This document shows positions 2,699 through 23,075 of a DNA stretch of 32,000 nt, one piece after another. A program made the translations under genes and the position numbers. This DNA comes from Tannockella kyphosi (lineage in GTDB: Bacteria; Bacillota_I; Bacilli_A; Erysipelotrichales; Coprobacillaceae), in NCBI RefSeq assembly GCF_021054785.1, contig NZ_CP088239.1:1740001-1772000 (forward strand). The letters are read 5' to 3'. The stretch's first letter is position 1, and each line of letters starts with the position of its first letter. The notes beneath the pieces were generated by a model. It was not told where the DNA came from. It ran no database searches and saw only the letters and a list, made by a program, of their open reading frames with translations.

Positions 2699-4252
2699 CT
2701 AAGATCTATTACTTAATATTGTTAATGGATCATAACGTAATACAGAAACAACACCTACACTACTTGCTACTACTGATAAAATTAAGGCAATTGCTAGTAA
2801 TTGTGCAATTACTTCAACATCCATAGAAACACTAATAGAATCAACATAATCAACATCACTAGTTCCCATCATACTCAAACTAGCTCCTTGTTCCATACCA
2901 CCAGCCATGCTTTCACCTTGGAAGTTTCCACCAAAGTTTTCTGAAACATCACTATAATCTGTTGATAATGATTCAATTTGATCTGCTAATAAAACATTTG
3001 CTAATGGAGTAGCAACTATTGTTCCTCCAACACCACCTATTACAATAGCTAGGATTGTAATCATAAATGTTTCACAAATAAATTGTTGTGCTACTTTTAC
3101 TTTTGGCATACCAATAGCTGCCAATACACCTATTTCATATTTTCTTTCTCTAATTGTAAAGATATTAAATAAGATTAAGATAACAGAACCAATGGCTAAT
3201 ACTACTAAGAAGAAATAAGTAGTAAAACTTGTTAAGTTTTCTAATGGTGTGATACTTGCTTCATATTCTGTTAAATCACTTGATACAACAGTATATGATT
3301 CTTCATCTAAACCAGCTTCAAATACAGATACACTAAATGATTCATAATCATCTACTGAAGCAAATGTAAATACGCCAGAAGTAGTAGCTACTAAAGTAGT
3401 ATCTAATTCAATTGTTTCATCTTCATCTACATAATATGATTCGGCTACTGACTCTGAATTAGCAGCGATTACTTGATAATAATCTTCACTAATATAAATA
3501 TTATTAGCGTAAGCATCTGTTGTTTCACAACTAAAGATACCTGTTACTTCTATTTCATATAATTCACTATCTAATGAAGGATTTGCTAATTCAATTGTAT
3601 CTCCTACTGAAATATCATTTAAATAAGCTACTTCTTGAGAAATAATACAACTAGCACTATCATCCATATCAAATACAGTTCCATCATAAATCACACATGT
3701 ACCATCAATAAAATTAGTCATACCATCATGAGTAGAAAAACTTGTTACTTCAAAATCTCCAGATGACTCTACAGAGATTCCCATCTCCATACCGCCAGCC
3801 ATACTCATACTTCCACCCATCATTTGAGATTCTCCAAATCCGGTAGTAGAAGTTTCATAAGCTTCCAAACTTGAACCATCTAATCCAATTGTTCTTGTAT
3901 AATAGAAAGAAGCTACTTCTTCTAAATCTTCATATTCTTGCAATTCTTCTAAAGATAAGCCTTCTTGCATTGCAGCCATTTCTTCCATAATTGCATCACT
4001 GTCTAATTCGAAATCTTCTCCCTCAGTTCCACGTTCAGCGAACCCTGATTCCATCATCCCAGTACGATTGGATGTAATTGTCGCACTAATAGACATACTT
4101 TCATACGTACTTTCTTTTGCTGCATTTGCACTACTACGAATACATAATGCTACACAGCTAGAAAAAGCAATCGTTACGATTAAAATAAAAATTAATATAC
4201 TTCTTCCTTTTTGTCTTGTAATGTTTTTAAAAGCATTTTTAAATATATACAT
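2699..4252 (-). CDS. FtsX-like ABC transporter permease with a large acidic extracytoplasmic domain
   Basis: Typical N-terminus MYIFKNAFKNITRQKGRS preceded by AGGAGG, so I prefer ATG 4252 over the track start at 4282. Layout is one TM, a ~310-aa loop, then three C-terminal TMs (FtsX/MacB topology). Confidence 0.85.
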   Translation of the reverse strand: MYIFKNAFKNITRQKGRSILIFILIVTIAFSSCVALCIRSSANAAKESTYESMSISATITSNRTGMMESGFAERGTEGEDFELDSDAIMEEMAAMQEGLSLEELQEYEDLEEVASFYYTRTIGLDGSSLEAYETSTTGFGESQMMGGSMSMAGGMEMGISVESSGDFEVTSFSTHDGMTNFIDGTCVIYDGTVFDMDDSASCIISQEVAYLNDISVGDTIELANPSLDSELYEIEVTGIFSCETTDAYANNIYISEDYYQVIAANSESVAESYYVDEDETIELDTTLVATTSGVFTFASVDDYESFSVSVFEAGLDEESYTVVSSDLTEYEASITPLENLTSFTTYFFLVVLAIGSVILILFNIFTIRERKYEIGVLAAIGMPKVKVAQQFICETFMITILAIVIGGVGGTIVATPLANVLLADQIESLSTDYSDVSENFGGNFQGESMAGGMEQGASLSMMGTSDVDYVDSISVSMDVEVIAQLLAIALILSVVASSVGVVSVLRYDPLTILSNRS

Positions 4253-4330
4253 AATGTGTCCTCCTTTATGTTCATTTACCACTATAGCCTTTAAATATGA
4301 TGGAAATGTGAGGAGAATATATATAAATAA

Positions 4331-4352
4331 AGGAAAAAGGGCTTTTGCCCTT
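4331..4352 (-). terminator. Intrinsic terminator after the 470-aa membrane protein gene
   Basis: Minus-strand RNA AAGGGC-AAAA-GCCCUU followed by UUUUUCCUUU. Overlaps the stop codon at 4351-4353. Confidence 0.6.
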
Positions 4353-5739
4353 AGTCATATAGTTCTATATCATCTATGTTTTCTTTTGTATAACGTAAAT
4401 CATTTATCTTTTCATATATTTCACTTGCTTCATTTGACTCCATTTTATAACAATACCATGATATATCACCATCACTATTTTTTATTAAAACAGAGACTTC
4501 ATCAAAATAATAACCATACGTTAATGCACTTACATACTCTTTATGTTTTAGACAAGCTTCATCCATTAATAAAAGCAGTTCTTCATAGTCCACAAAGTTA
4601 GTAAACTCTACTTCTTTTCCACCAGAAGATACGGAAACACTCACCACTTCTTCTTTTACATCATAACTTGTAAAAGTACCCAAACCATTACTCATTAAAA
4701 ATCCAGCAGTAGCTATAAAAGCACTACTCATACAAACCAAGAATAAACCGACTGTCTTATAATGTAAGAAGGGTTTCCCGGCACATTTCAATAACGCTAA
4801 ATAAGCAACCAAAGTAATTGATAATACAGTCACGGTAGTAGTAATACTGGCATATAATCCTGTAAACAAACAAACAAAACTACTATATACTAACATCGAA
4901 CAAATAATAAATGGATATCCCCACCATATTTTTGGTGTTTCTAATATATCTTCATGTTTACGTAACTTCATTTTATGATACGTATAGAATCCAATTAGAA
5001 CAACAAGAACAAACCAAGCAAGTTTATAGGGCATCATTGTCCATCTTAATGCATCACTTGTCGTTAGAATCTCAAAATCAAATAACATACTAGTAATTGG
5101 ATTTTGATTTAAAAACTCTTGAATATAATAAAATCCTTTATACTCATAACTTGTATATAATATCCCTGTACTATAAGCACTTGTTCTTACAATCGCTAAT
5201 CTACTAATCGTTACATATATCAAATAGCTAAGAGAAGGTATCCCTATCGTATAGGCACCTAGAAATAAGAAGGCATCTATTTTTGAATTTGCTAGTGAGC
5301 AAATACAATAAACTAATATATAAAGTATTGTCCCTGTTAAAGCTATCAAAAAACTACCAGCCGCATATAAAGAAGCATCGATATTTAATAAAGAAGCATT
5401 TAAAAACAACGCAACAATAGAAAAGCATATGTATGGTAAAAATACAATTCCATAACCAATTGCTCCATCTAATAAAAATAATTTCTCTTTTTTTAGTGGT
5501 AAAGAGCCATATACATCCATTGCTGGCTTTGAATAGTGTTTCTTAAACATCCTATATCCAACAATATAAACACTACCTAAAACATATAGAGCACTATAAA
5601 AACTAGAACCACTATAATAAGAAGAATCTAAATTATATAAATATGGTAAAACAGCTACAAATAACAAGGCACTAATACATTCAATCAATAGAAACTGTTT
5701 ATTATGTTTTATAAAATAATATATATATTTCTTAATCAT
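4351..5739 (-). CDS. Polytopic membrane protein, presumed permease partner of the upstream ABC ATPase (family not recognised)
   Basis: Roughly 10 or more hydrophobic segments followed by a ~110-aa soluble C-terminal domain. The track start at 5763 is a TTG overlapping the ATPase gene. ATG 5739 lies 1 nt after the ATPase stop, which suggests translational coupling. Confidence 0.6.
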   Translation of the reverse strand: MIKKYIYYFIKHNKQFLLIECISALLFVAVLPYLYNLDSSYYSGSSFYSALYVLGSVYIVGYRMFKKHYSKPAMDVYGSLPLKKEKLFLLDGAIGYGIVFLPYICFSIVALFLNASLLNIDASLYAAGSFLIALTGTILYILVYCICSLANSKIDAFLFLGAYTIGIPSLSYLIYVTISRLAIVRTSAYSTGILYTSYEYKGFYYIQEFLNQNPITSMLFDFEILTTSDALRWTMMPYKLAWFVLVVLIGFYTYHKMKLRKHEDILETPKIWWGYPFIICSMLVYSSFVCLFTGLYASITTTVTVLSITLVAYLALLKCAGKPFLHYKTVGLFLVCMSSAFIATAGFLMSNGLGTFTSYDVKEEVVSVSVSSGGKEVEFTNFVDYEELLLLMDEACLKHKEYVSALTYGYYFDEVSVLIKNSDGDISWYCYKMESNEASEIYEKINDLRYTKENIDDIELYD

Positions 5740-9252: not shown

Positions 9253-10677
9253 TTATTTGTTAGAAGATGTTTTTTGATACGTTGGTAAGCTAAATGAAAA
9301 CTCTACCCCTTTTTCTTTGTTTTCAACAAAGAATCTACCTTTATGATGTTGAATAATAATTTTTACAATATGTAATCCTAGCCCTGCATGAACTCCTTTT
9401 GTTCGTGTTCTTGACTCATCAACCTTATAAAAACTATTCCATATTTGTTTTATTTTTTCATCTTCAATTTTATTACCATCATTATAAACAGAAAATACTA
9501 CCTTATCCTCTTGTTTATCTAAACATATTTTAATATGACCTTCTTTTGAAACATGACTAATTGCATTATTTATATAATTGCGCATTGCTTCTTGAAGTTG
9601 TTTTCGATCGCCATGAACATATACTTCTCCATCAATTGATAATTGTAATTGATATTCACTTGTTAAGAATTGATAAGTTTGTAATACTTCATGACATAAT
9701 CCTGTTAAATATATTTCTTCAAAATGCATTTTTGATAAACCATGTTCAATATTAGAAAGATTTAACATATCTTTTACAATTGCATCTAAACGTTTTGTTT
9801 CTTCTAGTATTACGGTATAATACATTTCTTTATCAATACCTGGTGTATTACTTTGTAAACTTTCGGTATAGATTTGTAAAAGAGCTAAAGGAGTTTTCAT
9901 TTCATGAGAAACATTCGCAATAAATTGTTTTTTCATTTCTTCATTTTCTTTTTGATAATCAATATCTTTTTGTAGTTCGATAATTGTATTGTGTAATTGT
10001 GCTGACATTTCATTAATACTTTTTGATAAGCTTTCCATTTCATAAGAACTAGCTTTTTCATTTGCTTTGCTTGAAAAATCTAATTTAGCAACTTTTTTAG
10101 CAACACTCTCTACTTCTAAAATAGGTCTTGTTAAGTTTTTAGATGCGATATAAACTACAATTCCTCCAAATATAATAACAAAAATAGCGATCATTATACT
10201 AGCTTCTGTAAATAAGGAAATACTGTTTTCTATAGACTCTACGGGAGCGGATAAAGAAACATAGATAGTTTGATCTTCGTATTCAAAGCTACCTTGTAAA
10301 CCAACTACTTCCATTAAGTCATCTTCCATGGACGCTAATACACCAGCTTCAGGATCACCACTAAAAGCTTGTAATTCTAGTGGTTTTATCGGAACTATTG
10401 AACTTAGTCTAGTAGAGTAAATCATTGTATCTTCACTAAAGATAATAACAGATATTCCAGATATTTCATTTTCTTGACTAGTTAGTCCATATAATGTCTC
10501 TGTATTGTTTTCAAAATTTTCTTTTATCTTATCAAATAATTCTTGTACTTCTTGTTCTTTTTTTGCAATAAAATATTCTTTTGAAAAACCAATATTAAAT
10601 ACTATTTGAATACCTAACATACAAATAATAAGTGCTCCAAATATAAAAGTTATTCTAGTTTGAAAACTCTTTTTCAT
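9253..10677 (-). CDS. Sensor histidine kinase (two TMs, extracytoplasmic loop, HAMP, HisKA, HATPase)
   Basis: H-box FIANVSHEMKTPL. N-, G1- and G2-type motifs in the C-terminal third (NAISH, VYNDG, GLGLHIV). Overlaps the response-regulator stop by 4 nt. Confidence 0.9.
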   Translation of the reverse strand: MKKSFQTRITFIFGALIICMLGIQIVFNIGFSKEYFIAKKEQEVQELFDKIKENFENNTETLYGLTSQENEISGISVIIFSEDTMIYSTRLSSIVPIKPLELQAFSGDPEAGVLASMEDDLMEVVGLQGSFEYEDQTIYVSLSAPVESIENSISLFTEASIMIAIFVIIFGGIVVYIASKNLTRPILEVESVAKKVAKLDFSSKANEKASSYEMESLSKSINEMSAQLHNTIIELQKDIDYQKENEEMKKQFIANVSHEMKTPLALLQIYTESLQSNTPGIDKEMYYTVILEETKRLDAIVKDMLNLSNIEHGLSKMHFEEIYLTGLCHEVLQTYQFLTSEYQLQLSIDGEVYVHGDRKQLQEAMRNYINNAISHVSKEGHIKICLDKQEDKVVFSVYNDGNKIEDEKIKQIWNSFYKVDESRTRTKGVHAGLGLHIVKIIIQHHKGRFFVENKEKGVEFSFSLPTYQKTSSNK

Positions 10678-11363
10678 ACTTGCACCTCAAATAAATATCC
10701 TACTCCATGAACGGTTTTAATATAATGAGAACATCCTTTTAACTTCATTCTTAATTGTTTAATATGGGTATCTACAGTACGATTATCTCCTTGATAATCA
10801 TACCCCCATACTTGTAATAAGATTTGTTCTCTTGTTAATGTGATTTCTTTATTTAAAATAAAATATTGTAATAAGTCATATTCTCTTCTAGTAAGTTCAA
10901 TAGGTTTGTTTTCTAGTAATACAGTTCGTTTGGAAGGTACTAATGTAAGGAGGCCTAAGTTATGTGTTTGTTCTGTTTGTTTCATTGTTCTTCTAAGAAC
11001 TGATTCTACTCTTGCTATTAATAAAGACAAAGAAAATGGTTTCGTAATATAGTCATCTACTCCATATTGAAATCCTTTTATTTGATCATATTCTTCACTC
11101 TTTGCTGTTAACATAATAACAGGTGTATCAAACTTATTTTCTCTTAATTCAATTAATGTTTCAAAACCATCTTTAACAGGCATCATAACATCTAATAAAA
11201 TAAGATCAATCATCGTATTATTTTGATAATGTATATCTAATGCAACTTGTCCATTTTCAGCAAGTAATACTTCATAATTTTGTGCTACAAAAAAATCCTT
11301 TAACACAACTAACATTCTAACTTCATCATCCACAATTAAAATACATTGTTTATTTCCAATCAT
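10674..11363 (-). CDS. OmpR-family response regulator
   Basis: Receiver motifs ILIVDDE, DLILLDVMMP and LTAK, with a winged-helix C-terminus (RTVDTHIKQLRMKL, VHGVGY). AAAGAGGTG RBS precedes ATG 11363, so the track start at 11393 is rejected. Confidence 0.9.
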   Translation of the reverse strand: MIGNKQCILIVDDEVRMLVVLKDFFVAQNYEVLLAENGQVALDIHYQNNTMIDLILLDVMMPVKDGFETLIELRENKFDTPVIMLTAKSEEYDQIKGFQYGVDDYITKPFSLSLLIARVESVLRRTMKQTEQTHNLGLLTLVPSKRTVLLENKPIELTRREYDLLQYFILNKEITLTREQILLQVWGYDYQGDNRTVDTHIKQLRMKLKGCSHYIKTVHGVGYLFEVQV

Positions 11364-11383
11364 TTCTATCACCTCTTTAACAT

Positions 11384-11392
11384 AGTATAGCA
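11384..11392 (-). promoter_or_regulatory. Candidate extended -10 promoter for the two-component operon
   Basis: Minus strand reads TGCTATACT just downstream of the EIIC_2 terminator. No convincing -35 element. Confidence 0.35.
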
Positions 11393-11417
11393 TAATTATG
11401 ATAGGTATGTGAGGAGA

Positions 11418-11442
11418 TAAAAAAAAGGAGAGAAATCTCCTT
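11418..11442 (-). terminator. Intrinsic terminator after the MATE/EIIC_2 unit
   Basis: Minus RNA AAGGAGA-UUUC-UCUCCUU followed by a run of 8 U. Overlaps the stop codon at 11441-11443. Confidence 0.65.
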
Positions 11443-12445
11443 AAAATTTAGTTAACTTTAAATCTCCTGCTTTAATATAATTTAACTTACGGAATCCTTT
11501 GTAAATACCATAACAAATAAAGATCGGTAACAATATATCCACACACATTACAACTACCCATGAACTAGCACCCATAACATCAACCGCTGCAAGTGGTCCT
11601 ACAAATCCTGCAGTACCCATTCCTGAACCTACGGCACTACATTCAATACCAAAAACAATCGTTGAAATTGGTGCAATGATAGCACTAGTTATAATAGGTG
11701 GTAACCATATAATAGGATTACGAACAATGTTTTTAAATTGTAACATACTTGTTCCAATCCCAATTGCAATTACATCTCCAATATCATTATCATCCATGGA
11801 CATCATTGCAAAGCCAATCATTTGAGCACAACATCCTGCTAATGCAGCACCTGCTGCAAGACCAGATAAATTTAACATAACTCCAATAGCAGCACTAGAA
11901 ATAGGCGCAGTTAAAGCCATTCCCATTAAGACTGCTACAATAATAGACATAAAGAGTGGTTGCATAGCAACTCCTTGATTAATCAATTCTCCTATCCAAG
12001 TAATAAATAATGTAATATAAGGACCCACAAATGTAGAAACGATTCCTGCTACTACAATAGATGTAAACGGCACTAATAAAATATCAACCGGTGTTTTTCC
12101 CTGAACTAGCTTTGTTGCTTCTACAGCTGCAATAACAGCCACATAAGCACTAATTGGATTTCCAACACTAACAACACCATTCACATAAGTTCCTGCACCT
12201 ATTGCCCCCGCAATAACTGCAACGATTAAGTTTAAACCAGTTGCTCCAATTGCATAAGCAATACCAACTCCAATAGCTGGACCCATTAAGATACTTGCTA
12301 CACCACCCCAAGTAACAAGTTGTGTAATTCCACTATAGCTACCAATTTGTGTCAAAATAGTTCCTATAATTAAACTACTAAAAAATCCATAAGCCATCCC
12401 ATTTAAAGTCTTTACTACATAATTACCCTTACTAACCTTTGCCAT
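11441..12445 (-). CDS. PTS_EIIC_2-type membrane protein (orphan EIIC-like transporter)
   Basis: 334-aa, Gly/Ala-rich polytopic protein. The N-terminus MAKVSKGNYVVKTLNGMAYGFFSSLIIGTIL matches my memory of the PTS_EIIC_2 (PF13303-like) family. No EIIA or EIIB gene is adjacent. Confidence 0.65.
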   Translation of the reverse strand: MAKVSKGNYVVKTLNGMAYGFFSSLIIGTILTQIGSYSGITQLVTWGGVASILMGPAIGVGIAYAIGATGLNLIVAVIAGAIGAGTYVNGVVSVGNPISAYVAVIAAVEATKLVQGKTPVDILLVPFTSIVVAGIVSTFVGPYITLFITWIGELINQGVAMQPLFMSIIVAVLMGMALTAPISSAAIGVMLNLSGLAAGAALAGCCAQMIGFAMMSMDDNDIGDVIAIGIGTSMLQFKNIVRNPIIWLPPIITSAIIAPISTIVFGIECSAVGSGMGTAGFVGPLAAVDVMGASSWVVVMCVDILLPIFICYGIYKGFRKLNYIKAGDLKLTKF

Positions 12446-13855: not shown

Positions 13856-13931
13856 TGGTGGAGCCTAGCGGGATCGAACCGCTGACCCCCTGCGTGCAAG
13901 GCAGGTGCTCTCCCAGCTGAGCTAAGGCCCC
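13856..13931 (-). tRNA. tRNA-Ala (anticodon UGC), CCA encoded
   Basis: Reverse complement GGGGCCTTAGCTCAGCTGGGAGAGCACCTGCCTTGCACGCAGGGGGTCAGCGGTTCGATCCCGCTAGGCTCCACCA. G3:U70 identity pair present; anticodon loop CTTGCAC. Confidence 0.95.
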
Positions 13932-13947
13932 AAAGAATATTAAATTA

Positions 13948-14024
<77 letters not shown>

Positions 14025-14052
14025 ATAATGTAATAATCTGCAAATTAATTAA

Positions 14053-14129
<77 letters not shown>

Positions 14130-14318: not shown

Positions 14319-14492
14319 AAAAAAGATTATCTTATTAGACAATCTTTTGTGTTGCTTTTAGTATTTGATACATATCTTCTTCTAATAATACTTTGGCACT
14401 ACCTATTTTTCCTTTATTTCCTAGGGCACATAAGTTAGCCATTGTGCGAAGTTGTTGGTCTGTAGCGTTAACACCCAACTCTTCCATTGTAA
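14319..14492. repeat. Direct repeat copy 1 (174 bp): orphan copy of the Fe-ADH 3' end plus terminator
   Basis: Base-for-base identical to 21872-22045 by manual alignment. Identity breaks sharply at 14493 (CTGTCACC here versus TAGGCATA in copy 2) and at the end of the A-run on the outer side. Confidence 0.9.
14335..14492 (-). pseudogene. Displaced 3' fragment of the iron-containing alcohol dehydrogenase gene (last 51 codons)
   Basis: Encodes TMEELGVNATDQQLRTMANLCALGNKGKIGSAKVLLEEDMYQILKATQKIV, identical to the C-terminus of the 395-aa ORF at 21888-23075. In the track it is fused to 45 unrelated codons (ORF 14335-14625) with no RBS. Confidence 0.85.
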
Positions 14493-14640
14493 CTGTCACC
14501 ATAATACCATATTCCTTATAGTCATCACAAAACAGAGAGAATTGCCTATCAACTGAAATTCCCCTAGTCACAAAAAAGCTTATCAATAAATAAAATTGAA
14601 AATTCTTAAATGTAGCCTCAAACATAAATAAAAGAGAGTT

Positions 14641-15240
14641 TTATTTCTTGCTGTTCAACCTTTCACCAACCGCTCCTCCTGGATGAACTAAAGCAAAGCT
14701 TTCCACCTTGTAATCTATCTCTTCCATAATAGCAGTTTGCAAAACATGGAAAATCATGCATAACGCCGTAGACGAAGTCGTCCCTTGACAATTGTATCTA
14801 TCCACTTCCTTGTTTACATATTGCTTTAAAACTATATCCGATTCTAACGCCATTTCAGAACCCATATTCTCAGTTATAGTGATAACTTTAACTCCTTTGT
14901 TCTTACATATGCCAATTAAAGGAATCAACTCTTTTGTTTTTCCTCCTCTTGACGCTAAAACTAACACATCACCTTTTTGTAAAAAACCCATTCCGCCATG
15001 TATCGCTTCAGCAGGAGATATAAATTTTGATGGTCTGTCAATACAGCATAGTAAATGCGAAAAATGTTGGCACATAATTCCAGAATGCCCACAACCTGAA
15101 GTACCAATTCTAGGTGCATTAATTAAAATTTCAACTGCTTCTGATAACTTCACAACATCCAAATGAGAGCTCATTTCACTCAAACAACCAGACTCTATCT
15201 TAAACGCTTCATTAATTATTATCTTCGTTTCCTCTTTCAT
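14641..15240 (-). CDS. SIS-domain sugar-phosphate isomerase, KpsF/GutQ-like without CBS domains
   Basis: 199 aa. Contains IGTSGCGHSGIMCQHFSHLL (SIS phosphosugar loop region), VLASRGGKT and the C-terminal LVHPGGAVGERL motif typical of arabinose-5-P isomerase-type SIS proteins. Confidence 0.75.
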   Translation of the reverse strand: MKEETKIIINEAFKIESGCLSEMSSHLDVVKLSEAVEILINAPRIGTSGCGHSGIMCQHFSHLLCCIDRPSKFISPAEAIHGGMGFLQKGDVLVLASRGGKTKELIPLIGICKNKGVKVITITENMGSEMALESDIVLKQYVNKEVDRYNCQGTTSSTALCMIFHVLQTAIMEEIDYKVESFALVHPGGAVGERLNSKK

Positions 15241-15287
15241 ATTTTATCGATAAATAGCAATTAGCTATTTTCCCCTTCTACATTATT

Positions 15288-17273
15288 TCATTCTTTATAA
15301 CATAACTTCTTAAATATTTGATCTCCATTCATTTCTAGTAGTTTTCTTCTTCTATCAAAATCCTGACCAATTGAAACAATTTCTTTAAACAAGTCCGCAT
15401 GATCATCAATTCCTCTAGATGAAAAGCAAAATAGAAAATTAACAGATCTATCTCCTTCTGAAAATAAAATTCCTTTTTTTGAAACCAATAAACTTAATCC
15501 ATTTTCGTATACTTCATATTCTTTTCCTGCGTGAGCTAAAGCCACCCCACTGCCTAAAATTATATAATCACCATAGTCTTCAATATTTTGTATTGCCTTC
15601 TCAACAAAAGATGGTCCCACGCAGTTTCTTTCTACTAATTTTTTACCCGCTAATCTTATTCCATCTTTCCAGCTTGTAATTGTTTCATCCAATATCAACG
15701 AGTCCCTCGATAAAAGTTCGCCTATTAAGCTAACTTTCGAGTTATCACAACCAGATCTTTCAACATCCCATTGTCTACTAAAATTATCCGTGACACACTC
15801 AAACCTATCATTATCCATTCTCACATATCCATTCGTACTTTGAATTTCAAACGTCATTTTTTGAATCAAATTTATGTCTTCCATAGATAAAACAGGATTT
15901 ACTTTAATACTTTTTATATCTTGTTTTTCAACTTGTACAGTAGAAATTATTAAATCAATAGGTACAACACCTTCTAATCTGCTAGATACAGGAAAAACAC
16001 CCACTATTTCAAAATCAAAATAATTTCGTATTTGAACTTCTAAATACTTACCTGTTGCCATACTCCCAGGACATATAATAGCGACATTTAATTTTTTCAT
16101 TTTTTCATTTTCCTTCAATAAAGAAACACAGATATGAATAAGAATCGACTTTTTCATATTAGAGTTGATTCTGTAAGATAAGTATTTTTCTAATATGTAA
16201 ATATACTTATCTACAATACGTGAGAGATTCTGAAAGTCAATGAAGGGCATATTGCTACCTTTAAATTCAAATTCTAATTCGCCCCATTTTCTCATGTTTT
16301 TAATATGCAGTAAAAGAGAAGAAACTAGAGTATCATCAAAATGGAGGTTATATTTAGTTTCCTCATCTATTTTTGATAAAAAATACAATATAATTTCGTA
16401 TAACTCGACATCGTCAACATTTTTAACATATAAATCTATATTTTTATCTAATAAATACTTTCTAAAATATTCTAACAGATGATCATTTACTTTATAACCC
16501 AACTTATACCCAACGTACATCATTAAATTATCCATTCTATCATAATTTTGATTTAGTGAAACACTTTCATCTTTTGAAGAAAACTGCCAATTAAACGCAA
16601 CAAATAAATATAAAATCGTATTTAATAATGAATCATCTATAAAAACAAAGCCATTTATATTTAGATATTCTTGTGTTAAATCACATATCGTATTAAACGA
16701 ATTTTCACAATTAAAAGCATTTAAAATATATTGTTTAAAAAAAGACTCATCATTATTTTCTAATAATAATTTTTTCATTACATGGACAATTACAGTAAGT
16801 CTTTTCTCCAATGTTGTTTCTATTCTTACACCTTTGCCCGCTTCCGAAACAACAGACACATCTTTAGAATGGAAATATTCTTTCACTATATCAAAGTCAC
16901 TTAAAACAGTAATTCTACTCACATAAAGTTGGTCCCCCAATTCCTTCATAACAATATTATTATCCCATAATAGTAACAATATGATATATGTTTGTCTTTC
17001 TTCAGGACTTAATTTGTATTGATAGATGTCCATGCTTTGTAAAACTCTTCCGATCAAACCAAATTCTTTACCAAAACCAGGAGTAAGATATCCATCAGGG
17101 CTTAAAAGAATTTCCGGAATATTGTTCGACTTCAAAAAAACATTTATTTCAGCCAAATCTTTTCTTGCCGTTTTGTCTGATATTTTATATTTTTCCATTA
17201 TTAATCTAAGTGAATAATTTTTATCCCCCTTGAGAATAAGTCGTAAAATCTCTTCCGATCTTTTCTTCATTCT
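15288..17273 (-). CDS. PRD-domain PTS-controlled transcriptional activator (MtlR/LicR/BglG family: HTH, PRDs, EIIB-Gat-like, EIIA-Mtl-like)
   Basis: N-terminal HTH region (ISDKTARKDLAEIN). Central PRD-like helical repeats. EIIB-like NVAIICPGSMATGKY with Cys. C-terminal EIIA-like GVALAHAG with His. AGGAGGTG RBS before ATG 17273. Confidence 0.85.
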   Translation of the reverse strand, partial: RMKKRSEEILRLILKGDKNYSLRLIMEKYKISDKTARKDLAEINVFLKSNNIPEILLSPDGYLTPGFGKEFGLIGRVLQSMDIYQYKLSPEERQTYIILLLLWDNNIVMKELGDQLYVSRITVLSDFDIVKEYFHSKDVSVVSEAGKGVRIETTLEKRLTVIVHVMKKLLLENNDESFFKQYILNAFNCENSFNTICDLTQEYLNINGFVFIDDSLLNTILYLFVAFNWQFSSKDESVSLNQNYDRMDNLMMYVGYKLGYKVNDHLLEYFRKYLLDKNIDLYVKNVDDVELYEIILYFLSKIDEETKYNLHFDDTLVSSLLLHIKNMRKWGELEFEFKGSNMPFIDFQNLSRIVDKYIYILEKYLSYRINSNMKKSILIHICVSLLKENEKMKKLNVAIICPGSMATGKYLEVQIRNYFDFEIVGVFPVSSRLEGVVPIDLIISTVQVEKQDIKSIKVNPVLSMEDINLIQKMTFEIQSTNGYVRMDNDRFECVTDNFSRQWDVERSGCDNSKVSLIGELLSRDSLILDETITSWKDGIRLAGKKLVERNCVGPSFVEKAIQNIEDYGDYIILGSGVALAHAGKEYEVYENGLSLLVSKKGILFSEGDRSVNFLFCFSSRGIDDHADLFKEIVSIGQDFDRRRKLLEMNGDQIFKKLCYKE

Positions 17274-17315
17274 TTCACCTCCTCTAAAATATATCAAAAA
17301 ACATTACATACAAAT

Positions 17316-17339
17316 CAAGGACAGCCTAAGCTATCCTTG
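17316..17339 (-). terminator. Stable hairpin between the EIIB gene and the regulator gene (possible partial terminator or processing site)
   Basis: Minus RNA CAAGGAUAGC-UUAG-GCUGUCCUUG, a 10-bp stem with one G-U pair. No immediate U-tract follows. Confidence 0.35.
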
Positions 17340-17350
17340 TTATACAATTT

Positions 17351-17647
17351 CTATTCACTAGCCACTTCTAAAAGCAAATCAGTAATTTTTTTCTCTGTAG
17401 CCTCTTTATTAACACCTGATATCAAACCAAATACACTCATACATGGTTTTTCTAAGGGTTTGCGATAATTTGAGGTCGTTAAGATAACATCAACAGAATC
17501 TTGTTTACCAGGAATTTCTGATAAATTAGATTTTACAATTTTTGCTTCTATCCCTGCTTTTTTCACTAATACCTTTACTGCTTCTTGAGCAATTGTAGAA
17601 GTTGCTATTCCACTCCCACATGCAACCAATATTGTTATAGGTTTCAT
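17351..17647 (-). CDS. PTS EIIB component, galactitol (Gat) family
   Basis: MKPITILVACGSGIATSTIAQEAV carries the active-site Cys context of GatB-type IIB proteins. About 98 aa from ATG 17647 (AAAGGAAG RBS). Confidence 0.85.
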   Translation of the reverse strand: MKPITILVACGSGIATSTIAQEAVKVLVKKAGIEAKIVKSNLSEIPGKQDSVDVILTTSNYRKPLEKPCMSVFGLISGVNKEATEKKITDLLLEVASE

Positions 17648-17668
17648 TTTTCCGCTTCCTTTCATTAT

Positions 17669-18208
17669 TTATTCAATACTGGCATGTCTCTTTGACATGC
17701 TTTTGTTTTTATCTTCTCCAGCACTGCTTATCATCAAAACGATTCCATCAAAAATTATAAGTAACATTTGTTCAAACAAACTTCCTAAGGGTTGTACGCT
17801 TGCTTTAGACTCTGCATATTTAGTTGCTGTATCAATTCTAATTAAAGGCTCATGATTTGTACTTAGGGTTGAAGCATTACTTCCTGTTAAAACAATAACA
17901 GTAGCTCCTTGTTTTACTCCCTCATCCGCAGCATTACAAACGCTTGAAGTTTCTCCAGAAGCAGATGCAACTATTAACAAATCACCATCCTCGATTGAAG
18001 GCGTTGTGGTTTCACCAATAACATACGAGTTATACCCTAATTGCATCAATCTCATAGCAAATGTTTTCAACATTAATCCGGTTCTTCCTGTTCCATAGAC
18101 AAATATTCTTTTATGGCTATTTATCGCGCCAATAAAGGTACTCAACTCTTCGTCCTTCACTTGTCTGGCACTAACTTCTAATTCTTTTATAATTATTTCT
18201 AACGACAT
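17669..18208 (-). CDS. SIS-domain protein, 6-phospho-3-hexuloisomerase (PHI/HxlB)-like
   Basis: 179 aa. RIFVYGTGRTGLMLKTFAMRLMQLGYNSYVIGETTTPSI, LLIVASASGET and QPLGSLFEQMLLIIFDG match the PHI family pattern as I remember it. Confidence 0.7.
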   Translation of the reverse strand: MSLEIIIKELEVSARQVKDEELSTFIGAINSHKRIFVYGTGRTGLMLKTFAMRLMQLGYNSYVIGETTTPSIEDGDLLIVASASGETSSVCNAADEGVKQGATVIVLTGSNASTLSTNHEPLIRIDTATKYAESKASVQPLGSLFEQMLLIIFDGIVLMISSAGEDKNKSMSKRHASIE

Positions 18209-18229
18209 AATATATCTCCCACATTCTTT

Positions 18230-18673
18230 TTATCCGATTTTTTCTGAAAAATATTTGATTAAATCTTCGCCTTCTAGTTTTTGACACATATTCAAGCATT
18301 CTTTATCGTCCAAAAAAGTCATCATATTTTGCAAGAATTTTATATGCTGTGATGAATCTTTTATGGCAAGATTAAAAATAAGACTTGTTTCTATCTCTTC
18401 TTCGACATCATCCATCCTATTGAATGTAACGGGATGATCCAACTTAAGAAAGCATATGCAACTTTCCGTAATACCATCATCACCCGCATGAGGCATAGCT
18501 GTAGGAATTACAGTCGGAAGTCCCGTTGGATACTCTTCTTCACGGCAAATACAAGAGTTCGCAAATTCTTCTGAAACTATTCCTTTTTCATATAGTGCAT
18601 TCGCACATAGCTTAATCGCTTCATACTTGTCTTTTGCCGACCCTTTGATTACTACATATCTATTCGAGACCAT
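18230..18673 (-). CDS. PTS EIIA component (mannitol/fructose/galactitol-type, EIIA_2)
   Basis: 147 aa. Phosphorylatable His context VIPTAMPHAG. Sits between the EIIC and PHI genes. Confidence 0.85.
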   Translation of the reverse strand: MVSNRYVVIKGSAKDKYEAIKLCANALYEKGIVSEEFANSCICREEEYPTGLPTVIPTAMPHAGDDGITESCICFLKLDHPVTFNRMDDVEEEIETSLIFNLAIKDSSQHIKFLQNMMTFLDDKECLNMCQKLEGEDLIKYFSEKIG

Positions 18674-18688
18674 TTTAATTACCTACCT

Positions 18689-19945
18689 TTACCCAAAGAT
18701 TAATTTAAGGAATGAAACAAATAAATTCCCAGGATTCCATCCAAAATGTGAAGCAGTGATAAATCCTTCAATTTCTACACCTGTCACTGATAACATTTGT
18801 GTTGCTTCTGGTATAAACATATTTGCAAAAAATAAAGTTGTTGTCATCATAAAGACCATACATGTTAAAGTTCTAACAATATTTCCCTTACTAGCTAATA
18901 CACACATCGGAGCAACATAGCATACCTCTGCTAAAATAGCTAATGGGAAGAATCTCATATCTGGAAGCATTAATGCAATAAGAATAGTAACTGGAATCAT
19001 AACAGCTGTACAAGTGATACAAGCTGGATCTCCAAGACCTAAAGCAATATCCATCCCAATATAAATATCCGCATCAGGACCGATTTTTTTACGCATATAA
19101 TCATTTGCTGCTCCACCCATAGGAGATAAACCTTCCATCATGATACTAACCATTCTAGGAATTAATACCATTGCCGCTGCTACTCCCATACAAATTGTTA
19201 AAATACTAGAGAAACTTTGTTGAGTTAATACCCCTAAGAAAAGCCCTACAAAAATACCAATAACTGCTGGATCACCTAAAACTCCAAATTTTTCTGAAAC
19301 TCTATCAATATTAGCATCTAAATCTTTTACTACAGGAATTTTATCTATAATTTTATTAATTACATAACAAATTGGATATGTCCAAGCACAGAAAGATAAT
19401 GTTGTACATGTTGTCCCTTCTAACCCAAAATACTCAGACCATTTTGGAGCTAACCATTGCGCAAAGAATAATGCAATCATCCCACATCCAAATGCAACTG
19501 CAAAACCAAGAATCGCACTGCCAAATAGAGCATAAGCTAAAGCACCAGGAACTAAGAAGTGCATGAAATTCCAAATATCTACATTTAATACTTTTGTTAT
19601 TTTTAATCTTACTAAAATAATATTAACGATAATAATCGCTGGTACTACAAACACAGCAAACGGAACTGTCCAAGACGCCGCACCTAATGCAGCAAATCCA
19701 ATTTCCAATGCATCATAACCAGTACCCATACTACTATAATAAACCATTACTGGATCAATAGAGTCAATTAACAAAGTTACCGCTAAACATAACCCTTGAA
19801 AACCAATACCTACTAATAAACCAGCTTTAATAGATTGTCCTACTTTCAAACCAAAAAACACGCATAAAGCAGCAATAATTACCGGAAGTAATACTACCGC
19901 ACCCAAATTCATAAATGTTTGAGTAAATTCTAAAATAAATTCCAT
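18689..19945 (-). CDS. PTS EIIC component, galactitol (Gat) family
   Basis: 418-aa polytopic protein. The N-terminus ...LGAVVLLPVIIAALCVFFGLKVGQSIKAGLLVGIGFQGL parallels E. coli GatC (LGPTVMLPIVIIIFSKILGMKAGDCFKAGLHIGIGFVGI). Confidence 0.9.
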   Translation of the reverse strand: MEFILEFTQTFMNLGAVVLLPVIIAALCVFFGLKVGQSIKAGLLVGIGFQGLCLAVTLLIDSIDPVMVYYSSMGTGYDALEIGFAALGAASWTVPFAVFVVPAIIIVNIILVRLKITKVLNVDIWNFMHFLVPGALAYALFGSAILGFAVAFGCGMIALFFAQWLAPKWSEYFGLEGTTCTTLSFCAWTYPICYVINKIIDKIPVVKDLDANIDRVSEKFGVLGDPAVIGIFVGLFLGVLTQQSFSSILTICMGVAAAMVLIPRMVSIMMEGLSPMGGAANDYMRKKIGPDADIYIGMDIALGLGDPACITCTAVMIPVTILIALMLPDMRFFPLAILAEVCYVAPMCVLASKGNIVRTLTCMVFMMTTTLFFANMFIPEATQMLSVTGVEIEGFITASHFGWNPGNLFVSFLKLIFG

Positions 19946-20037
19946 ATTTTTATCTTATAGTGACTATCACTATATTTCCCTCTCATTTTATTATTACATA
20001 TTATTTAAATTACTTCTATATTTGCGTCTCAACTAAA

Positions 20038-20790
20038 TTAAGCAATTGTTCTACCGCCATCCAATAAAATAGTTTGCCCTTGTATATAAGAATTTTCAGG
20101 ATCCGCTAAGAAAATAGTTAAGTTTGCAACATCTTGTACCGTTCCCATTCTTCTCACAGGTATGGTATTTAACACTTTATCTAAACTCTCTTGTGTTGGG
20201 TAATTAACTCTCATCATTTCCCCTGTGTCTATTAGTCTAGGAGCAATAGTGTTAACATTCACACCTTTTGGACCTAGTTCTTTCGCCAATCCTCTCATCA
20301 ATCCTTCTCCTCCTGCTTTAGCAGCTGGATAAGGTACAGCTCCACCTGTTCCACTTAATGCAGAACCAGAACTTATATAAACAATAGAGCCTTTATTTGT
20401 TAAAAAATCATTATAAAACGCTTTAACCGTTGTAAATAAACCTCCTAAATTAATATTTACAATTTTATACCAGTCATCCATAGTCACATTATCCACAGTG
20501 CTTTTCATTGCGATACCTGCATTTAACACTAATACATCGATTCTTCCAAATTTTTCAAATACTGACTCACGAATATTTTCCATTGCTACAGCATCTGAAA
20601 CATCAGCAGGTAAAAATATTGATTCACAATATTTTTCACTAATTTCTTTAGCTGTCTGTTCTCCGAAATCTTTATTGTAATCTACTATAACTGTATTTGC
20701 GCCTAGTTTTGAAAATTGCATAGCAATTTCTTTACCTATACCGTGCCCTGCACCGGTAACTAAAACAACTTTATTTTCAAATTTTTTCAT
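20038..20790 (-). CDS. Short-chain dehydrogenase/reductase (SDR), FabG/SrlD-like
   Basis: Cofactor motif TGAGHGIGK, NAG motif and catalytic YPAAK (YxxxK). 250 aa. Confidence 0.9.
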   Translation of the reverse strand: MKKFENKVVLVTGAGHGIGKEIAMQFSKLGANTVIVDYNKDFGEQTAKEISEKYCESIFLPADVSDAVAMENIRESVFEKFGRIDVLVLNAGIAMKSTVDNVTMDDWYKIVNINLGGLFTTVKAFYNDFLTNKGSIVYISSGSALSGTGGAVPYPAAKAGGEGLMRGLAKELGPKGVNVNTIAPRLIDTGEMMRVNYPTQESLDKVLNTIPVRRMGTVQDVANLTIFLADPENSYIQGQTILLDGGRTIA

Positions 20791-20792
20791 AT

Positions 20793-21446
20793 TTACACCT
20801 CTGTAGCTAAAATCTGCTTTAACTCATCATAATTTTGTTTTGGAGTACTGCTAAAAATATATCCCCCTACAACTATCATATCAGCACCAGCTTGAGATAG
20901 TTTTGCGATATTCTTATTATTAACTCCTCCGTCTACTTCTATCTTGATAGGTCTTTCTCCTATCATAATTTTTAAATCTTCAATTTTCTTAATTGTATTT
21001 TCAATAAATGATTGCCCTGGTGTTCCAGGATTTATTGACATAAGTAACACATAGTCTAAATCATCCAATAAACATTCTAACACGCTAATTGGTGTCCCAG
21101 GATTTAAAACAACCCCTGCTGATCTTCCGGCTTTTTTTATTCGCTGTAGCATGTTATGGATATGTGGAGTTGTTTCATAATGCACTGATATCATCTCTGT
21201 TCCAGTTGCTATGATGTCATCTAAATGATCTTTTGGATTTGCCACCATCATATGGACATCAAATATCATAGTAGAAGCCTTCTTCATTTCTGAGATTTGT
21301 AATGCTCCAAATGCAATGTGCGATACATAATTTCCATCCATCATATCGACATGTAAAATTTCTGTCTTTTCATCTTCTAAAAATTCTAATTCTTCTTTCA
21401 ACTTCAGTATGTTGGCTCCAAAAATTGAAGGTAGTATTTGACTCAT
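20793..21446 (-). CDS. Ribulose-phosphate 3-epimerase family protein (RPE/AlsE-like)
   Basis: LPSIFGANILKLKEELEFLE..ILHVDMMDGNYV, FDVHMMV, LLMSINPGTPGQSF and EVDGGVN align with the RPE consensus. GAGGAGGG RBS before ATG 21446; the track start at 21485 is rejected. Confidence 0.85.
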   Translation of the reverse strand: MSQILPSIFGANILKLKEELEFLEDEKTEILHVDMMDGNYVSHIAFGALQISEMKKASTMIFDVHMMVANPKDHLDDIIATGTEMISVHYETTPHIHNMLQRIKKAGRSAGVVLNPGTPISVLECLLDDLDYVLLMSINPGTPGQSFIENTIKKIEDLKIMIGERPIKIEVDGGVNNKNIAKLSQAGADMIVVGGYIFSSTPKQNYDELKQILATEV

Positions 21447-21539
21447 CGTATCCCTCCTCATTTTACGATTTTTTTTGCAAAACAACTGATCAGGTTATTT
21501 TTGCCTTTCAATAGTTCATGAATTATTACACTTTAATTA

Positions 21540-21568
21540 TATAATTATGGTAACCATTCTCAAGTCAA
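21540..21568 (-). promoter_or_regulatory. Weak candidate promoter for the islet operon
   Basis: Minus strand TTGACT (21568-21563), 17 nt, then ATTATA. Other -10 registers are possible in this AT-rich stretch. Confidence 0.3.
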
Positions 21569-21871: not shown

Positions 21872-22045
21872 AAAAAAGATTATCTTATTAGACAATCTTT
21901 TGTGTTGCTTTTAGTATTTGATACATATCTTCTTCTAATAATACTTTGGCACTACCTATTTTTCCTTTATTTCCTAGGGCACATAAGTTAGCCATTGTGC
22001 GAAGTTGTTGGTCTGTAGCGTTAACACCCAACTCTTCCATTGTAA
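21872..22045. repeat. Direct repeat copy 2 (174 bp): native 3' end plus terminator of the Fe-ADH gene
   Basis: Identical to 14319-14492. Contains the stop codon (21888-21890) and the terminator hairpin AAGAUUGUC-UAAUAA-GAUAAUCUU plus its U-tract. Confidence 0.9.
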
Positions 22046-23075
22046 TAGGCATATCAAGTTGGACAAAGAATTCTTCCAATGTAGCTATCCCTAAAAGAGC
22101 TGTTTTTTCTTTAGATGATTGAACTTTCACTTCCATTACATCGATCGCAAACTTCACAAAACGATCCAAACAATCTAGATAGACATATCTTGCCCAACTT
22201 GGCCATACTACTGCTAATCCAGCACCATGTGCCACATCAAACATACCACCTATTTCATGTTCTAATTTATGAGATGCAAAGTCTCTTTGATCATCTCCAA
22301 AACTAGTTAAGTCATTATGTGACAAACTAGAAGCCCACATAATTTCAGCTCTTGCTTGATAGTTACTAGGATCTTTTTTAAGAATTAATGAATTCTTGAT
22401 TACTGTTCTTAATAGACCTTCTGCTATTGCATCTGTCATTTCCATTTTAGAACCATGAATAAAATATCTTTCTAATGTATGCATTAAAATATCCACACAA
22501 CCACATGCTGTTTGATAATCCGGTAAAGTAATAGTTAGCTCTGGATTCATAATCGCAAATTTCATACGAATATTATCATTATTATGACCTCTTTTTAGGC
22601 CGCCATCTTCGTTGGTAATAACACAACTATTACTCATTTCACTTCCGGCAGCTGCTATTGTTAGAACACATCCTAAAGGTATGGCTCCTGACGAAGCTCC
22701 TTTAAATGAAAACAAATCCCATACATCTCCCTCATATTTCATTCCCCATGCAATCGCTTTTGAGGAATCAATAACACTTCCTCCACCTACTGCTAAAATA
22801 AAATCAACAGATTCTTTTTTACATAATTCTATTCCTTCATATACTTTAGAAAGTCTTGGATTTGGAACTACTCCACCTAATGATACATATTCGATACCTG
22901 CTTGTTTTAATGATGTTTCTATTTCATCTAATAAACCTGTTTTTTTAGCACTATTACTACCATAATGTAATAATACTTTTTTACATTGTTGTTCTTGAAT
23001 TAATTTTCCTACTTCTTTTTGTGATTCTTTACCAAAAACCACTTTTGTAGGTGCATAAAATTGATAAATACTCAT
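21888..23075 (-). CDS. Iron-containing alcohol dehydrogenase (butanol dehydrogenase/YqhD-like)
   Basis: 395 aa. GGGSVIDSSKAIA NAD(P)-binding motif. Metal-binding His region HTLERY...HKLEHEIGGMFDVAHGAGLA. Confidence 0.9.
   Translation of the reverse strand: MSIYQFYAPTKVVFGKESQKEVGKLIQEQQCKKVLLHYGSNSAKKTGLLDEIETSLKQAGIEYVSLGGVVPNPRLSKVYEGIELCKKESVDFILAVGGGSVIDSSKAIAWGMKYEGDVWDLFSFKGASSGAIPLGCVLTIAAAGSEMSNSCVITNEDGGLKRGHNNDNIRMKFAIMNPELTITLPDYQTACGCVDILMHTLERYFIHGSKMEMTDAIAEGLLRTVIKNSLILKKDPSNYQARAEIMWASSLSHNDLTSFGDDQRDFASHKLEHEIGGMFDVAHGAGLAVVWPSWARYVYLDCLDRFVKFAIDVMEVKVQSSKEKTALLGIATLEEFFVQLDMPITMEELGVNATDQQLRTMANLCALGNKGKIGSAKVLLEEDMYQILKATQKIV

Follow-up and report, generated by a model that had tools for sequence, protein, structure and literature searches.

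In a 32,000-nucleotide stretch of Tannockella kyphosi DNA (contig NZ_CP088239.1, positions 1,740,001 to 1,772,000; hereafter the window), eight minus-strand genes between positions 21446 and 14641 make up a real, recently inserted sugar-alcohol uptake unit. Read from 21446 to 14641, they encode a ribulose-5-phosphate 3-epimerase (RPE)-like protein, a short-chain dehydrogenase/reductase (SDR), EIIC and EIIA of a Gat-family phosphotransferase system (PTS), a 6-phospho-3-hexuloisomerase (PHI)-like SIS protein, EIIB, an activator and a KpsF-like SIS protein, with intergenic gaps of 2–92 nt. An earlier sequence-only reading of the window had described the same genes in this order, and both an open reading frame (ORF) check and profile matches confirmed them as intact, free of stops and frameshifts. 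At a probability of roughly 45%, we read the cassette as part of a widespread and undescribed hexitol pathway that operates via C3 oxidation and 3-hexulose-6-phosphates: a hexitol would be converted to hexitol-6-phosphate, D-lyxo-3-hexulose-6-phosphate, D-arabino-3-hexulose-6-phosphate and finally fructose-6-phosphate, with all reactions and the substrate predicted.

The cassette would accordingly be an operon that was gained by horizontal transfer, is regulated by the PTS and serves the catabolism of one sugar alcohol. EIIABC would import a hexitol and phosphorylate its D-threo end, and the NAD-linked SDR would oxidise C3 to give D-lyxo-3-hexulose-6-phosphate. The RPE-like enzyme would then invert C4, which is what RPE normally does, here with one more CH2OH on the substrate, and the HxlB-type isomerase is predicted to convert the resulting D-arabino-3-hexulose-6-phosphate to fructose-6-phosphate, the known reaction of its family. 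The general scheme of the sequence-only reading (a polyol phosphorylated on uptake, oxidised, epimerised and isomerised towards central metabolism) is supported, with its chemistry deduced from sequence.

A conserved six-gene core

Loci were fetched via EIIC (52), via the SDR (80) and, for some others, by name. The 25 full-length loci that were non-redundant had been collected by SDR or EIIC similarity and include kin that are not independent of each other; in this set, PHI and EIIC genes lay beside the dehydrogenase gene in all 25, an RPE gene in 24 and a KpsF-like SIS gene in none. The neighbourhood search did not recover the eight-gene block as a conserved unit. Instead, the conserved core consists of EIIABC(Gat), a dehydrogenase, the RPE-like and the PHI-like protein, accompanied by a variable regulator of the PRD, DeoR or SorC type. 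The core is carried by Lachnospiraceae, Erysipelotrichaceae, Paenibacillus, Enterococcus, Negativicutes and Gilliamella, by 226–234 of 5,426 complete E. coli genomes (~4%) and by 36 plasmids of Klebsiella, Pantoea and relatives, and the genes are arranged differently among Lachnospiraceae, Bacillales, Enterococcus, Negativicutes, Gilliamella and enterobacteria. Since several loci (in Paenibacillus, Breznakia, Megasphaera-type bacteria and Pantoea) comprise the core alone, its three enzymes must end at a central metabolite.

Some copies of the module (L070, L071, L086) bring their own HPr and enzyme I genes and thus encode a self-contained PTS. A second Gat-type PTS with a 455-aa EIIC (82–84% identical) often adjoins the core (L066:1962-4610; L068:1-2429; L155:1839-4526). 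Its partner is an RpiB-like gene in E. coli and Gilliamella and a PHI-like gene in Enterococcus, apparently a swap of unrelated isomerase folds. At locus L017, from a metagenome-assembled genome, EIIC-EIIA-EIIB genes stand at both operon ends (2792-4548 and 10543-12299) with identical EIIC proteins, reflecting either a duplication or an assembly effect.

Isomerase and epimerase

The PHI-like core protein (17669–18208, minus strand) reached 200 bits against the HxlB equivalog TIGR03127 (cut-off 160) and aligned over its full length to YckF (E 7.5e-32), with the YckF motifs, including the C-terminal catalytic His/Glu, kept. As the sequence-only reading had noted, its usual partner in formaldehyde fixation, 3-hexulose-6-phosphate synthase (HPS), is missing: a profile search of the whole 99.5%-complete genome (2.26 Mb, 30.7% GC) yielded no HPS, the best TIGR03128 match being 27 bits versus a cut-off of 200, and in four of the five other carriers searched HPS was likewise below cut-off or unmatched. 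Profile matches of the cassette proteins also bore out that kinase, aldolase, HPS and transketolase are all absent from the cassette. Two transketolases, a housekeeping RPE, RpiB, enzyme I and HPr are encoded elsewhere in the genome. A PHI without HPS, kinase or aldolase would be explained if the 3-hexulose came from polyol oxidation rather than from formaldehyde fixation. D-arabino-3-hexulose-6-phosphate is ribulose-5-phosphate extended by one CH2OH, so that an RPE-type C4 inversion followed by PHI is chemically natural.

The RPE-family epimerase (20793–21446, minus strand; PF00834) belongs to a module-specific clade and is our candidate 3-hexulose-6-phosphate 4-epimerase. It scored 222 bits against TIGR01163 (cut-off 212.6), and the catalytic two His and two Asp (H32, D34, H65, D172) are invariant. 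An alignment-based model showed the RPE fold (pLDDT 94, Z 33 to solved RPEs). The canonical loop PGFGGQ, however, reads PGTPGQ, and its Phe is absent from all ~95 module RPEs; where read, these carry a new Phe after the N-terminal active-site Ser, which is invariant among the 20 aligned proteins. The loop Phe is kept in the solved RPEs shown, in the host housekeeping RPE and in neighbouring AlsE-like enzymes. Loss of this residue may open room at C1 of the substrate. Module RPEs clustered apart from the housekeeping copy (tree support 94/87, with one outgroup and a long branch). The beta-8 phosphate loop has RPE length, not AlsE length, so the ketone is expected three carbons from the phosphate. 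With this loop and a score of 171 against the AlsE profile PRK09722 (cut-off 271), the epimerase is not AlsE-like, and we rejected both an als system and a route for allitol or allulose via AlsE. In both PHI and RPE, the catalytic motifs look canonical.

Dehydrogenase and transporter

The classical SDR (20038–20790, minus strand; PF13561) is proposed to act as the polyol-phosphate dehydrogenase. Its family is tight (71–78% identity among the top 120 matches) and shares an invariant APRLIDxG motif, whose Arg185 could bind phosphate. The Asp after beta-2 is of the NAD type, and the enzyme is probably NAD(H)-dependent. No curated family matched above cut-off. We rejected FabG because TIGR01830 gave 189 against a cut-off of 298, the Asp follows beta-2, and the host fabG lies in the fab cluster elsewhere. 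SrlD-type sorbitol-6-phosphate dehydrogenase was rejected as well, since SrlD was not among the top 25 families and identity to a PRK06171-positive protein was 28%. Sorbitol itself would need neither epimerase nor PHI. In sister operons of Anaerostipes and some other Firmicutes, a 349-aa zinc-dependent medium-chain dehydrogenase/reductase (MDR) occupies the SDR slot, which supports the role proposed for the SDR. The sequence-only reading had taken MDRs as a mark of other systems, and this was too strong.

EIIC (18689–19945; PF03611), EIIA (18230–18673; PF00359) and EIIB (17351–17647; PF02302), all on the minus strand, have the features of the PTS Gat family (TC 4.A.5): an EIIC-GAT domain together with cognate EIIA, with a phosphorylatable His at the expected position, and EIIB, with its active-site Cys loop intact. 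The best NCBIfam matches were galactitol IIA, IIB and IIC, all below their cut-offs (EIIC, TIGR00827: 294 against 542), and the EIIC clade was well separated from GatC and SgcC (SH-aLRT 100; 30–32% identity). Close transporters of this clade (60–72% identity) sit with GatD-like, LacC/PfkB and GatY/GatZ genes. Taken together, the gene sets around the clade (GatD-like with tagatose enzymes; MDR with class II aldolase) would fit polyols with a D-threo end.

The distance of the clade from characterised members, along with an SDR above no curated cut-off and only 28% identical to an SrlD-type enzyme, might also point to another kind of substrate, such as an aldose or ketose or a branched, deoxy or seven-carbon polyol, handled with non-canonical enzyme geometry. 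Gat-family PTSs do import aldoses as well. Few other compounds, though, would let three enzymes end in a central metabolite, and the PHI and RPE motifs have a canonical appearance; we consider such a substrate quite improbable.

Some further sets around these transporters were observed. In Anaerostipes (L020-L027) and in Collinsella and relatives (L034-L061), transporters of the same EIIC clade go with a GatD-like MDR plus tagatose kinase and aldolase. These sets include a ketose 3-epimerase, psicose-epimerase-like in Anaerostipes and AlsE-like in Collinsella, which suggests a sorbose-6-phosphate intermediate. Sister transporters at 50–54% identity (L045-L055, L060) are accompanied by a different MDR together with a FucA-like class II aldolase; this set is a candidate ketose-1-phosphate route, for example for L-fucitol.

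Candidate substrates

We enumerated the stereochemistry of D-series pentitol and hexitol phosphates, covering unbranched C5/C6 polyols under canonical RPE and PHI geometry. RPE and a strict PHI are both required only for D-talitol-6-phosphate (= D-altritol-1-phosphate) and D-iditol-6-phosphate, with oxidation at C3. Galactitol qualifies only with a PHI that accepts both C4 epimers, and pentitols never need PHI. The sequence-only reading had held that the substrate could not be deduced from sequence; proof is indeed not obtained in this way, but the enumeration narrowed the choice. Its best candidate, D-altritol (= D-talitol), is possible though doubtful, and D-iditol, the second, is distinctly less probable. 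The brown alga Himanthalia contains D-altritol (PMC10087502).

Could the cassette serve galactitol instead? The SDR would then oxidise C2 to give tagatose-6-phosphate, and PHI, the epimerase and PHI again would achieve a net C4 epimerisation to fructose-6-phosphate via the same 3-hexuloses. The enumeration admits this route for a PHI that accepts both C4 configurations, galactitol is common, and the 60–72% identical transporters keep company with GatD-like, LacC/PfkB and GatY/GatZ genes. Yet one isomerase must handle two C4 epimers, and the route would duplicate genes that carriers already have: operon L017 includes GatD-like, GatZ and GatY genes, and of two E. coli core carriers, ATCC 8739 holds an intact gat operon and LF82 gatD. 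We therefore regard it as improbable. Mannitol was rejected because the genome has its own mtlA-mtlR-mtlF-1-phosphofructokinase operon and, by enumeration, mannitol needs no epimerase; it had come into view since no MtlD-family gene was found in the genome. Given the enumeration and the galactitol and mannitol genes already present in carriers, the hexitol route via 3-hexuloses is favoured.

The mannitol PTS operon (mtlA, mtlR-like, EIIB/EIIA; genome contig C1 563131-568174) ends in the 1-phosphofructokinase gene. A 417-aa MDR (C1 2154229-2155482), which we take to resemble sorbose-1-phosphate reductase although it had no curated match, could provide a route from mannitol-1-phosphate to fructose-1-phosphate.

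The strongest competitor, which we nevertheless consider unlikely, is a pentitol route: D-arabitol or xylitol would be phosphorylated and oxidised by the SDR to xylulose-5-phosphate, which RPE would convert to ribulose-5-phosphate, with the PHI-like protein serving as a pentose-phosphate isomerase that feeds transketolase. Klebsiella and Pantoea carriers, however, usually use D-arabitol by another route, and hosts already own a housekeeping RPE and RpiB. PHI, superfluous for pentitols according to the enumeration, is nonetheless found in 25/25 loci, and the canonical loop Phe is systematically lost in module RPEs. On the other side, pentitols are common in nature, transketolase-family genes were present in this genome and in 5/5 carriers tested, RpiB-like and PHI-like genes interchange beside the EIIC-455 transporter, and Bacillus methanolicus, Listeria and Enterococcus avium are known to use D-arabitol by way of a Gat-type PTS and a dehydrogenase (PMC6685057).

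Several points weigh against the proposed hexitol route, and some of them speak for pentitols. Its main weakness lies in ecology, since polyols as rare as D-altritol and D-iditol fit poorly with a module that is commonly found in bacteria of the human gut, the bee gut, soil and onions. The Pantoea module adjoins a xylulokinase gene (above cut-off) and a sugar ABC transporter, which hints at pentitols, and the epimerase remains above the cut-off of the ordinary RPE equivalog (TIGR01163). In addition, the room at C1 that loss of the loop Phe may open is read from a sequence motif, the enumeration presupposes canonical geometry and unbranched C5/C6 polyols, and we know of no characterised hexitol-phosphate dehydrogenase that oxidises C3.

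The terminal SIS protein

The last gene of the cassette (14641–15240, minus strand) encodes a SIS isomerase of the KpsF/GutQ-like type without CBS domains and is accessory to the conserved core. The protein aligned over its full length to Listeria PDB 3fxa (E 7e-39), but reached only 110 bits against the KpsF family TIGR00393 (cut-off 204). Compared with Bacteroides PDB 3etn, a His replaces the Lys of the GK[SA]G motif. This Lys is an active-site residue of KpsF/GutQ arabinose-5-phosphate isomerases. Its replacement, together with scores below the KpsF/GutQ cut-offs, led us to reject that function. Thus, among CBS-less KpsF-like SIS proteins (3fxa, 3etn and the arabinose-5-phosphate isomerases), the cassette protein is alike in its full-length alignment and differs in its His for Lys and its sub-cut-off scores.

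The sequence-only reading had placed both SIS isomerases in one pathway. All eight genes might indeed act together, given that the KpsF-like gene is intact, lies between the two repeats at a distance of 47 nt from the regulator and is kept in four other read sets. But a terminator-like hairpin and the regulator precede it, and it adjoined the core in none of the fetched loci. Thousands of homologues exist, the best 120 being 67–73% identical, and the three that we looked up sit in clusters of triosephosphate isomerase (TIM), SIS, YjbQ, FGGY and transaldolase genes or of isomerase and FGGY genes; close partners of the TIM/YjbQ/FGGY type were not found in this genome. We consequently hold an eight-gene pathway to be very improbable. 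The absence of the KpsF-like gene from all 25 loci argues that its protein is a passenger, by its homologues apparently from a module of the TIM-SIS-YjbQ-FGGY-transaldolase type. One such cluster, from Clostridia (L153:3547-9145), comprises DeoR, an archaeal-size TIM, the KpsF-like SIS, YjbQ, an FGGY kinase, transaldolase and an MFS transporter, and resembles erythritol/tetrulose catabolism.

An insert next to an alcohol dehydrogenase gene

A 174-nt direct repeat with 100% identity (14319–14492 and 21872–22045) flanks the 7,379-nt cassette. The upstream copy, the border of the insert on that side, consists of the final 158 nt of an intact iron-containing alcohol dehydrogenase (Fe-ADH) gene (21888–23075, minus strand) plus 16 nt, and the downstream copy is a duplicate of this 3' end. 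Assemblies from four independent sequencing runs contained the same genes at 99.8–99.9% identity and broke exactly 30 nt into the repeat. One of them represents the cassette with exactly 30 nt of repeat per end (99.9% identity), and three more break there. Since four read sets carry the genes and break in the repeat, neither the genes nor the repeat is an assembly artefact.

No match to cassette DNA was among those listed in 30 relatives. Of 200 other genomes of the order, one contained the cassette SDR and none the last SIS. Third-position GC was 0.22–0.31 in five of the eight cassette genes, and mostly 0.11–0.20 in the flanks. Neither the ORF list nor profile matches revealed an integrase, transposase or recombinase inside the cassette. 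Probably, a circle integrated by a single crossover at the Fe-ADH 3' end, which is the simplest reading, and the insert could excise by recombination between the repeats. Relatives lack the cassette, but their flanking synteny is broken and none of them showed an empty integration site, which is a point against this reading.

The regulator (15288–17270, minus strand) is an MtlR/LicR-type activator with helix-turn-helix and Mga domains, an EIIB-like Cys and an EIIA-like His; its PRD-like region scores below Pfam detection. Refined from the gene calls, the starts of EIIB and of the activator are probably 17647 and 17270. Between the two lies the terminator-like hairpin (17316–17339, minus strand). 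About 90 nt 5' of the RPE start, a sigma70-like promoter candidate (21536–21563, minus strand) matches the consensus at 11 of 12 positions; the total of such sites is at chance level.

A 96-aa ORF (14335–14625) was rejected as a gene: it is chimeric and probably spurious, has no family match, and its last 51 aa come from the duplicated alcohol dehydrogenase tail. The genome has two Fe-ADH paralogues, 65% identical (window 21888–23075; genome contig C1 1332607-1333776). Two tRNA-Ile(GAT) genes and one tRNA-Ala(TGC) gene lie at 13856–14129 of the window, away from an rRNA operon, and are followed by MATE and EIIC-2 genes; this block is conserved in 4/4 relatives checked.

Discussion

The view that the gene set fits no described pathway has held: the full-text literature searched assigns it no function and yielded only gene lists (PMC5817063) and a passing hexulose isomerase reaction in models of B2 E. 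coli (PMC5996543). What we add are the exchange of SDR and MDR, the exclusion of the second SIS protein, confirmation of the repeat from independent read sets, and a short, testable list of candidate substrates. If the hexitol route is correct, two new activities would be needed, a hexitol-6-phosphate 3-dehydrogenase in SDR and MDR versions and a 3-hexulose-6-phosphate 4-epimerase, and both enzymes might be useful for rare-sugar chemistry. The route would assign a function other than formaldehyde metabolism to hxlB genes that occur without HPS, and explain some annotations of 'hxlB' and of a second 'rpe' in genomes lacking HPS. It would also provide a function for a module of ~4% of complete E. 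coli genomes, of Klebsiella and Pantoea plasmids (including the onion-associated OVR-A), of the bee symbiont Gilliamella and of many gut Firmicutes. Two of its carriers are E. coli ATCC 8739, with the module near 1.825–1.829 Mb of CP022959, and Pantoea sp. MT58, with genes IAI47_RS19215-19245.

Among the closest known systems are the sugar genes of Pantoea ananatis OVR-A and an E. coli island beside ldtA, which have the same six-gene core with SDRs 68–70% identical, and differ by a SorC or DeoR regulator and the lack of the KpsF-like SIS. A table of OVR-A prints the core gene by gene without function (PMC5817063), and the onion phenotype has been traced to the neighbouring alt genes (10.1101/2020.02.12.945675). 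Both loci are homologues, not a characterised precedent.

The galactitol system gatYZABCD of E. coli is of the same PTS family, but EIIC, EIIA and EIIB of the cassette are 32%, 25% and 34% identical to it and form a separate clade, and the cassette lacks GatD, kinase and aldolase, so that we rejected membership; E. coli carriers of the core keep gat as well. The analogy with sgc of E. coli K-12, drawn by the sequence-only reading, is correct for the combination of a Gat-type PTS with an RPE homologue. It is otherwise loose, since SgcC and SgcE are ~30% identical to the cassette proteins, SgcC falls outside the transporter clade, and sgc has neither dehydrogenase nor PHI. With the ribulose monophosphate (RuMP) pathway (HxlA/HxlB; YckG/YckF of Bacillus subtilis; PDB 1m3s), the cassette shares an HxlB-family PHI and the proposed final step to fructose-6-phosphate. 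Neither cassette nor genome, however, encodes HPS (27 versus 200 bits), which rules out membership, and the 3-hexulose would come from a polyol.

PTS systems for arabitol and xylitol, Listeria axl among them, likewise belong to the closest known systems. The B. methanolicus atlABCD genes and the arabitol-phosphate dehydrogenase system of E. avium have in common with the cassette a Gat-type EIIABC, a PRD-type activator, a polyol-phosphate dehydrogenase and the RPE family (PMC6685057). By their descriptions, the cassette is set apart by an SDR or a different MDR, an obligatory PHI, a modified RPE and a core without transketolase or RpiB. The module remains within the familiar class of PTS polyol operons and, by analogy, may work like an arabitol/xylitol system with one more carbon in its substrate and the RuMP isomerase as its last enzyme.

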